Source: Candidatus Woesearchaeota archaeon
Lineage (GTDB): Archaea > Nanobdellota > Nanobdellia > Woesearchaeales > UBA11576
Direction: 5' to 3'
DNA: 64,000 bases
Assembly (NCBI GenBank): GCA_018668595.1
Contig: JABJCP010000013.1
Location: forward strand, 64,116-128,115
Shown here: piece after piece, positions 34,325 through 35,779 of the stretch
Layout of the letters: each line of letters begins with the position of its first letter
How positions within the stretch are numbered: the stretch's first letter is position 1
Made by a program: the position numbers and the translations under genes
The notes under the pieces: generated by a model
The model's database searches: none
What the model was told of the DNA's origin: nothing
The model's input: the letters and a program-made list of their open reading frames with translations, nothing else

Positions 34325-35767
34325 TTAGATGCATTTATTCTTACCTTTGTTTCCGATTAATTCACCAACTCGGTGAATCTCAATAAGATTTGTTCGTTTT
34401 CTTACATTCAATGGATGTGCTGCAGTGATAATTACCCTATCTGATTTTTTTATTAATTTATTTTTATATGCGCAAAGTGTAGACCAGTAAATTAAATCTC
34501 TCGTCGTAGTTATTTTATGTTCTCTACCTTTATTTATGTCAACCGGCTGAGCCCCCCAAACAAGAGCAAGCTGTCTTGTTGTTTTTTCATCAGGAGTCAT
34601 TGCAACAATATCTGCTTCTGGACGAAATTTAGAGATAAGAGATGCACTATAACCACTGTAAGTGCAAACAAGAATTTTATTGATTGGAGTAATTTGAGTA
34701 ATATCATAAACTGCTTTTGCAATAGCATCATTAGTTGAGGTGAGTTTCTGATTATGATCCAAATCTAAATTAAGTTCAACTTTTTTTGATATTCTAGTCA
34801 TCATTTTAACTGCAGCAATAGGATACTTACCAATAGCAGTTTCTCCACTAAGCATAATTGCATCAGTACCATCGAGAATTGCGTTTGCAACATCACTTGC
34901 TTCTGCCCGCGTTGGACGATTATTCTCAGTCATAGACTCAAGCATTTGAGTTGCTGTGATAACTGGTTTTCCAATCTCATTGCATTTTTCAATAATATGT
35001 TTTTGGATAAGAGGGACGTCTTCTGGCGGAAGTTCAACACCCATATCTCCGCGCGCAACCATAATCCCATCAGCAACCTCTAAAATTTTATAAAAATTCT
35101 TTACAGCCTCTTCACACTCAATTTTTGCAATAATTTTGATATGAGGTTGTGACTTGATAAGTTGCTTAATCTTAAGAATATCATCTGCAGTTTTTACAAA
35201 AGACACTGCAATAAAATCAGCATGATTTCTCATAGCAAATCTCAAATCCATTTTATCTTTATCTGTTAAACTTGGAAGTACAACTTTTTGACCTGGAAGA
35301 TTAATACCTCTGTTATTTTTTAAAACTCCTCCACTTTTAACTTTACAAATAACATCACGGTTTAACACATGATCAACTTTTAATTCAATTGCACCGTCAT
35401 TGATCAGAACCACATGTCCTTTTTTTGCCTGCTTTGGAAATCGCTTATAAGAAATATTAACCTGAGTGGAATCGCCAATGATTGGACGAGTAGTTAAAAT
35501 AAATGATTGACCTGTCTTAAGAATTGTTTTTTCTTTTACTAGCCCTGTACGAATCTCAGGACCTTTAGTATCAAACATTATTCCAATAGTATTAGAAACT
35601 TGTTTAATATTTTTTATCATGCGCGCATACTGAATATAATTACCATGAGAGCAATTAATTCTTGCAACAGACAAACCTGCTTCATAAAGTTTTTTTAGTT
35701 TAGAATAAGACTCTGTAGCAGGTCCAATAGTACAAACAATTTTAGTTTTAGCTTTAGCAATAGTAAT
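34325..35767 (-). CDS. pyk: pyruvate kinase; CDS extended upstream of the ORF-track TTG to an in-frame ATT
   Basis: The extension encodes [13 protein letters not shown]...[13 protein letters not shown], the canonical pyruvate kinase N-terminus. There is no ATG/GTG/TTG in this stretch. A GAGGTG Shine-Dalgarno motif lies 6 nt before the ATT. Confidence 0.85.
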   Translation of the reverse strand: [480 protein letters not shown]

Positions 35768-35773
35768 GATCTA

Positions 35774-35779
35774 CACCTC
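35774..35779 (-). promoter_or_regulatory. Shine-Dalgarno GAGGTG for pyk
   Basis: The reverse complement of cacctc. It is followed by TAG, ATC, then ATT. Confidence 0.5.

Follow-up and report, generated by a model that had tools for sequence, protein, structure and literature searches.

An ATT codon behind a Shine-Dalgarno motif as the probable start of a woesearchaeal pyruvate kinase gene

Where does translation begin on the gene of a conserved enzyme that offers no ATG, GTG or TTG ahead of its conserved N-terminus? This question is raised by the pyruvate kinase (PK) gene on the minus strand of a 64-kb stretch of contig JABJCP010000013.1 (hereafter the window; 64,000 nucleotides (nt), 30% G+C). 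The source organism is a DPANN archaeon, and its PK is closest to proteins of Candidatus Woesearchaeota archaeon and Nanoarchaeota archaeon (53-61% identity). An earlier note on this DNA had described a GAGGTG at 35774-35779 followed by TAG, ATC and, at a spacing of 6 nt, ATT, and had proposed that the N-terminus is translated from this ATT. The described order agrees with the minus strand, which reads aaaaaGAGGTG TAG ATC ATT ACT ATT GCT AAA GCT AAA ACT AAA ATT GTT TGT ACT ATT GGA CCT. Read directly, the Shine-Dalgarno (SD) motif is AAAAAGAGGTG (35774..35784; core GAGGTG, 35779-35774). Its own GTG is excluded as the PK start because an in-frame TAG (35771..35773), which closes the PK frame upstream, follows directly after it. 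The proposed start codon, ATT at 35765..35767, lies 6 nt past GGTG and is flanked by an ATC 3 nt past GGTG (35770-35768) and by the next in-frame ATT 12 nt past it (35761). From the TAG the frame stays open for 481 codons to a TAA at 34327-34325, so that the coding sequence as redefined here (34325..35767) comprises 480 codons plus the TAA. The earlier note had also held that no ATG, GTG or TTG precedes the conserved N-terminus, and indeed the first such codon in the frame is a TTG at codon 33 (35672..35674), while the first in-frame ATG, which was chosen by public gene calls, is codon 51 (35618..35620). No canonical codon competes 4-9 nt past the PK motif. Judging from comparative evidence, we consider it likely that the PK gene is intact and translated from the ATT at 35767-35765 by SD-directed near-cognate initiation, and that the same mechanism serves a PurE-like gene and a threonine synthase gene (thrC) in the window as well as the PK and ThrC genes of related Woesearchaeota.

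That the ATT-led extension belongs to the enzyme, as the earlier note had argued, was borne out by profile and structure comparisons. The PK barrel domain (Pfam PF00224, E 1.4e-117) matched residues 8-321 over profile positions 3-328 of 328, a match that is full-length, including the first strand (profile positions 1-30), only when the extension is included. The C-terminal domain (PF02887, PK_C, E 9e-29) matched residues 348-466 over profile positions 1-114 of 114. In the best PDB match (Geobacillus 2e28, E 6.5e-123) residue 5 of the query pairs with residue 2 of the chain, and solved PK structures, including E. coli PykF, align from their residues 2-3. From its 47-61% identity to annotated and solved PKs, we infer that the window protein would have PK activity, converting phosphoenolpyruvate (PEP) and ADP to pyruvate and ATP. 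Alignment with 14 Woesearchaeota PKs placed eight invariant columns upstream of the TTG (T8, K9, I10, T13, G15, P16, T18 and G31), and all family-invariant residues are kept in the window PK. The TTG (35674) itself sits at a conserved internal Met (AG[M]...) of the orthologues and most likely encodes an internal Leu. Across the 24 codons that separate TKI from the TTG, comparison of the window with 10 orthologues gave 99 synonymous and 67 non-synonymous changes, and this synonymous excess indicates that the stretch evolves as coding sequence under protein-level purifying selection.

The start region was compared among the window and 10 Woesearchaeota PK loci gathered one by one (53-61% identity), to which two ThrC loci were added. 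At all 11 PK loci, GAGGTG is followed after 6 nt (7 nt in L009 and L010) by an ATN codon that opens the sequence x-[KR]-TKI[VI]CTIGP, a geometry that supports translation of the N-terminus from the ATT as originally proposed. This codon is ATG in L177 (GAGGTG aacatt ATG GTC AAG ACT AAG), ATT in the window, L008, L009 and L010, ATC in L011, L174, L176 and L178, and ATA in L173 and L175. The start site of L175 is essentially that of L177 with ATA in place of ATG, and the nearest relative of the window gene (L008, 61% identical) also has ATT 6 nt past the motif. When the full PK alignment was searched against genome contigs and the N-terminal alignment against metagenome contigs, the matches listed were almost only bacterial-type PKs and none carried ARINCSHG, which is a signature of Woesearchaeota PKs.

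The GTG contained in the motif is in frame with the enzyme at seven of the 11 PK loci and unusable at the other four, where it runs into a stop codon (GTG-TAG in the window, GTG-AAT-TGA in L178) or is out of frame behind a 7-nt spacer (L009 and L010). Such tolerance of a stop or a 1-nt insertion between GAGGTG and ATN is what would be expected of a non-coding spacer, and a single start position for the 11 loci appears more parsimonious than three to four independent switches from a GTG start. Database proteins that open with 'VNxI.KTK' or 'MNxI.KTK' come from gene callers starting at the motif's GTG and are reported for six of the seven in-frame loci; at L177 the caller took the ATG. At the loci with an unusable GTG, callers fell to internal codons, which gave P0001, P0012 ('MVCTIGP'), and P0017 and P0018 ('M[NS]IARINCSHG'). 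P0019 (L011) is also truncated, though the motif's GTG is in frame and unblocked there. The missing N-termini of truncated relatives (L178 141-152, L179 2491-2511, L009 and L010) sit behind GAGGTG and ATA, ATC or ATT. An Asn codon directly after the GTG (GAGGTGAAY) was considered as evidence of a GTG start and rejected, since GGTGAA also occurs where it is non-coding (before TGA in L178, before TAA in L179 and ahead of the ATG of gene 29858).

PK is not the only gene of the window with this arrangement. The earlier note had drawn a parallel to purE, which stands, and thrC can be added as a third case with ATA; in all three genes, there are zero in-frame ATG, GTG or TTG codons between the upstream stop and the N-terminus supported by homology. 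In the PurE-like gene (minus strand), GAGGTG at 10737..10742 is followed at 6 nt past GGTG by an ATT (10730-10728) that stands directly after a TGA (GAGGTG ATTTGA ATT ACA AAA), and the gene read from this codon spans 9807..10730. Its first canonical codon is a TTG at codon 49. Upstream of the TTG lie the invariant residues G14, S15 and D18 of a GSxSD-type motif, the Pfam AIRC match has profile position 33 at residue 50, and in an exhaustive search residues 2-3 of homologues of ~300 amino acids (aa) aligned with residues 6-7 of the PurE-like protein. The N-terminal 70 residues alone, when searched against the PDB, returned noise only.

In thrC (minus strand), the SD motif AGGTGA lies at 43155..43160 and ATA (43147-43145) follows 8 nt past GGTG, giving a gene at 42023..43147 within an open frame of 42023-43177 (aaaAAGGTGA ACCAAAA ATA ACC CAC GCA). 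A canonical codon first appears 81 codons past the ATA, as an ATG (codon 92 of the open frame), and ThrC chains in the PDB align from query residues 54-64, upstream of this ATG. Read from the ATA, the protein has 374 aa and its orthologues have 366-375 aa; the latter open with MTLAxxIxCxxC where the window has (ATA)THATSIQCVEC. Length and N-terminal alignment therefore place the ATA exactly at Met1 of the orthologues, and a start at this codon would give the N-terminal peptide (M)THATSIQCVECK. The thrC of another woesearchaeote (L179, 64% identity, 37% G+C) reads GAGGTG AATTAA ATA GCA TTA GCA CAG AAG ATT AGG TGT, with ATA 6 nt past the motif and a TAA in the spacer, and its database protein (P0211) has 296 aa compared to ~368 aa for the full open frame. 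The ATT-AC(T/A) context suggested earlier was retained for the three window genes (next codons ACT, ACA and ACC) and abandoned for the orthologues, where CCT, ATC, ATT, ATA, GTC, GTT or GCA follows.

Shine-Dalgarno motifs are in common use in the window, as many genes carry a motif complementary to the 3' end of archaeal 16S rRNA (e.g., aaaaaaaGAGGTGtatcaatATG, aaaaaGAGGTGttaaaGTG, aaaaGAGGTGaacaaATG and taGGTGattaaATG), and the same A-rich GAGGTG context as in PK precedes the canonical starts of genes 27316, 29858 and 44162-45238. Start regions were scored, with at least 6 of 8 matches to GGAGGTGA counted as a strong SD. The 12 canonical genes with a strong SD had GGTG-to-start spacings of 5 nt (n = 5), 6 nt (n = 3), 7 nt (n = 3) and 8 nt (n = 1), and the near-cognate spacings (PK, 6 nt; PurE-like, 6 nt; thrC, 8 nt) fall within this range; canonical gene 27777 has a spacing of 10 nt. 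Genes lacking a canonical start were sought as long open stretches ahead of the first canonical codon, which were then searched with Pfam. Those with homology upstream of the first canonical codon were exactly the three with an SD followed by ATH (ATA, ATC or ATT), and this combination was found in none of the other 54 start regions of the window. Within this one 64-kb window of the genome, near-cognate starts make up 3 of 57 genes (~5%) and 3 of 15 strong-SD genes (~20%). The window has 14 copies of GAGGTG over both strands, where ~8 would be expected from composition (~1e-4 per position), and two of the eight copies in intergenic or gene-start contexts stand ahead of ATT. That the motif precedes an in-frame ATT by exactly 6 nt at two start-less genes is more than chance, and even for the lax 6-of-8 motif the probability of being in place at all three start-less genes is of the order of 5e-5. 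A spacing of 6 nt automatically puts the motif's GTG in frame with the start: in gene 56269-57336 the first canonical codon is the motif's GTG and an ATG follows 6 nt later, and the HD-domain gene beside PK in L175 and L176 has an in-frame motif GTG while its homologues start with MVFK at an ATG. Rfam and tRNA scans of the whole window found zero RNA elements, and the PK leader was no more structured than shuffled sequence (z = +1.75).

In the mechanism proposed for initiation at the ATT, the 3' end of 16S rRNA would pair with GAGGUG and position the small ribosomal subunit, and the AUU lying 6 nt further downstream would thereby come to occupy the P site. Initiator Met-tRNA, whose anticodon is CAU, would then pair with the first two bases, with the third-position mismatch being tolerated. 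The expected product is the full 480-residue PK with Met as its first residue, made at a rate lower than from AUG and in a manner that is possibly sensitive to aIF1. At the corresponding position in the PK and ThrC genes of related Woesearchaeota, ATG, ATT, ATC and ATA would be interchangeable.

Several points weigh against this reading. Complexes of the Sulfolobus solfataricus 30S subunit are reported to bind AUU mRNA only without aIF1 (PMC4705826), and efficiency at the AUU could therefore be low. Efficient use of AUU here would imply that expression is low by design or that discrimination is relaxed; neither an initiator tRNA nor an aIF1 gene was found in the window (the tRNA scan was empty). 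Most PK orthologues carry a conserved motif resembling a B recognition element (BRE)/TATA box, GAAACCTTTTTAAA, ~25 nt before GAGGTG, which would set the 5' end of the transcript just ahead of GAGGTG. The seven loci with an in-frame GTG could then start near-leaderless at GUG, the ATH being a conserved Ile codon, an account that leaves the window, L178, L009 and L010 untouched because the GTG is unusable there. Taken alone, the lax 6-of-8 motif has little specificity (of 116 hits, 35 have an ATH at 5-8 nt by chance), and for this reason the weight is placed on position, homology and conservation rather than on motif counts. Lastly, the comparison of independent assemblies described below covers the PK start region, and the purE and thrC starts come from one assembly.

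Among the alternatives, non-canonical initiation of PK at a neighboring codon fares best, and it is still unlikely. Both the ATC at 35770 and the second ATT at 35761 are in-frame near-cognate Ile codons, orthologues have ATC at the start position, and one canonical gene (27777) has a spacing of 10 nt. The ATT at 35767 is favored over its neighbors by the 5-8 nt spacing of the canonical strong-SD genes and by the ATN that all 11 PK loci hold at 6-7 nt.

We regard it as very unlikely that PK begins at the internal TTG (35674) or ATG (35620), as in the databases, with the upstream similarity being a relic. These are the only canonical codons, and public callers took the ATG: the public product P0001 (431 aa) is 100% identical to the window PK, of which it covers 90%, and is missing the N-terminal 49 residues. 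However, no SD was found at a usable distance ahead of the TTG, where the sequence is tatgaagcaggt, nor ahead of the ATG. The 32-49 residues that would be lost include TKIVCTIGP, the strand with which the barrel domain begins, and a start at the ATG would also lose the RINCSHG motif. The invariant residues and the synonymous excess upstream of the TTG speak against a relic as well, and the same relic would need to have been preserved in L009, L010 and L178.

That the gene has lost its start codon and is a recent pseudogene, or has been silenced, is no more probable than these internal starts. Loss of the start is a common first step of decay, DPANN genomes are reduced, and the window holds other oddities (a split purH, a helicase without its first domain and a split permease). 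Neither a disrupted frame nor relaxed constraint was found in PK, however, as the 480-codon frame is intact, and four diverged PK lineages with an unusable GTG nevertheless have intact frames. Decay would also not preserve a precise SD geometry common to three unrelated genes.

Less credible still is a start at the GTG inside GAGGTG with the TAG being read through or recoded. The GTG-TAG is in the PK frame and TAG is rare as a stop in the window, but it ends at least one real gene (44162-45238). The blocks elsewhere are TGA (purE, L178), TAA (L179 thrC) and a frameshift (L009 and L010), such that three stops would need readthrough, and the motif's GTG is without an SD of its own. Two further candidates were rejected. 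An upstream open reading frame (ORF) joined to PK by a frameshift finds no place in the 280 nt upstream of PK, which are intergenic, contain tandem repeats and hold no ORF entering the PK frame. A GTG-stop mini-ORF with re-initiation might be suggested by the stops that close the motif's GTG after 1, 2 or 4 codons in PK, the PurE-like gene and thrC, but these reflect an ascertainment effect because callers take the GTG wherever no stop intervenes, as in 7 of the 11 orthologues.

Weakest of all is an error of sequencing or assembly that destroyed an ATG at the PK start: although single-base errors occur in metagenome assemblies, such an error is effectively excluded because seven independent assemblies, including a repeat variant (L002), are identical over the start region, and the related L008 also has ATT. 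The earlier note had named this error among the things that could overturn its reading, and the check went in its favor. The gene for P0001 is present on 13 contigs, and the seven loci with DNA, which come from ENA and Logan assemblies of separate samples and pipelines, match the window at every position across 333 nt, including the ATT, a stretch that ends at the database-called ATG (35620). This genome is present in the samples of ERZ23491405, SRR3719565 and SRR8437085.

L002 is a distinct variant that has one copy fewer of a 22-nt repeat upstream and still carries GAGGTGTAGATCATT. Tandem Repeats Finder placed this repeat at 35807..35886, between the upstream gene and the PK SD (3.6 copies; minus-strand unit CATTAAGTTATCGTCATATGGT), and its copy number varies between samples (L002 vs L001). 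It is unstructured as RNA and could be a binding array for a regulator or part of a long leader. None of the PK orthologues has the 22-nt repeat upstream, and most of them carry the promoter-like GAAACCTTTTTAAA instead; the window is without GAAACCTTTTTAAA at the distance seen in orthologues and has the repeats together with a TATA-like AAAAACTATTTAAA at 35936-35923.

Several other features of the window were recorded alongside. The PurE-like protein contains an insertion of ~118 residues inside the PurE fold, and its family is sparse: 19 representatives were found at E<=1e-10 among 1.8 billion, and a word-indexed search gave the self-hit only. Its function may differ from that of classical PurE. 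The gene lies in a near-complete purine biosynthesis cluster (8593-21939, minus strand), in a DPANN-type genome, that comprises SAICAR synthetase, the PurE-like protein, adenylosuccinate lyase, split PurH, formyltransferase, PurD, PurQ, PurL and an AIRS-family protein. Here, purH is split into two minus-strand ORFs (12240-13610 and 13561-14271) with a 50-nt overlap between different frames. An MGS-like domain and AICARFT profile positions 1-59 fall in the first, and the second has AICARFT positions 74-311 after ~80 non-matching residues and the start signal GGGTGA + 6 nt + TTG. Either a truly split gene or a frameshift may account for this. A Hel308-type helicase ORF (24959-26593, minus strand) has Helicase_C, winged-helix, domain-4 and HhH regions and no DEAD/RecA1 domain, and the DNA directly upstream is taken by a VIT1-like gene on the opposite strand; it is possibly a split gene with its N-terminal half elsewhere. 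An ArsP_1-type permease is present as two consecutive half-size ORFs (33232-34094, minus strand; 145 and 142 aa), of which the second has a GTG start behind GGAGGT within the end of the first, an arrangement that is the same in all other assemblies. An orphan A-rich sequence resembling a ribosome-binding site, GAGGTGAT, lies in intergenic DNA at 30716-30721 (plus strand), and no ORF with a canonical or ATH start follows within range.

A wider claim would be that AUU, AUA and AUC serve routinely as SD-dependent starts in DPANN archaea of the Woesearchaeota type, that the PK start has drifted among ATG, ATT, ATC and ATA across the clade, and that the starts given by gene callers are instead the SD's GTG or an internal codon. 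This is a tentative suggestion that falls just short of what we would call probable. Standard gene finders allow only AUG, GUG and UUG. If near-cognate starts are routine in the lineage, many DPANN database proteins would be truncated, as is seen here for PK (431 vs 480 aa), ThrC (293 vs 374) and the PurE-like protein (259 vs 307), with P0012, P0017-P0019 and P0211 of relatives likewise affected, and other proteins would be wrongly extended from the SD's own GTG. Intact enzymes could then look broken, which could distort the metabolic reconstructions used to argue for host dependence. Weak starts on genes of PK, purine and threonine biosynthesis may set low enzyme levels in a minimal cell. Routine use, if true, would further imply a re-tuned discrimination of start codons (by aIF1 or the initiator tRNA) that is reminiscent of mitochondria, and the lineage would offer a natural system for studying the start-codon stringency of the archaeal/eukaryotic-type initiation machinery.

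How do these starts compare with known systems? In mitochondria, AUG, AUA, AUU and AUC are interchangeable at orthologous starts in AT-rich, reduced genomes, and initiation depends on a modified tRNA-Met, the mRNAs being without a Shine-Dalgarno mechanism. The genes described here share the interchangeable AUG, AUA, AUU and AUC at orthologous starts and the AT-rich, reduced genome; unlike in mitochondria, a strong SD is present and ~5% of the window genes are affected. Alternative initiation codons of invertebrate mitochondrial codes are described in PMC7947835. In bacteria, infC, which encodes IF3, starts with AUU, where the initiator tRNA pairs with a third-position mismatch and initiation is sensitive to the fidelity factor (PMC4705826). 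As with infC, an SD-led gene with a probable, conserved AUU start is found here. In contrast to infC, however, the host is an archaeon in which aIF1 and not IF3 would govern fidelity, the genes encode metabolic enzymes rather than a fidelity factor and no autoregulatory logic is evident, and the start varies among ATT, ATC, ATA and ATG between orthologues.

Near-cognate codons were found by N-terminal proteomics to be true starts of ordinary genes that gene finders had missed in Deinococcus deserti, as reported in PMC2830850. Whereas those bacterial starts are proven by proteomics, the starts in the window rest on comparison. An archaeal precedent comes from ribosome profiling of Haloferax volcanii, where ~30% of putative alternative initiation sites were near-cognate but were discarded by the authors as potential false positives (PMC7261190). 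Those sites are alternative or internal. In the window, by contrast, conserved enzymes have no other start available than the near-cognate codon, which is itself conserved across the clade. A review of archaeal initiation gives the starts as AUG, GUG and UUG only (PMC7531240). In the literature covered, which left most subscription journals outside, no account was found of ATT or ATA starts in Woesearchaeota, DPANN or Nanoarchaeota, nor a description of AUU-type starts for archaeal core metabolic genes or at such frequency and conservation. Overall, initiation presumably works here as it does in the known cases, and what is new is its setting: the archaeal domain, the core enzymes concerned, the clade-conserved position and the frequency.

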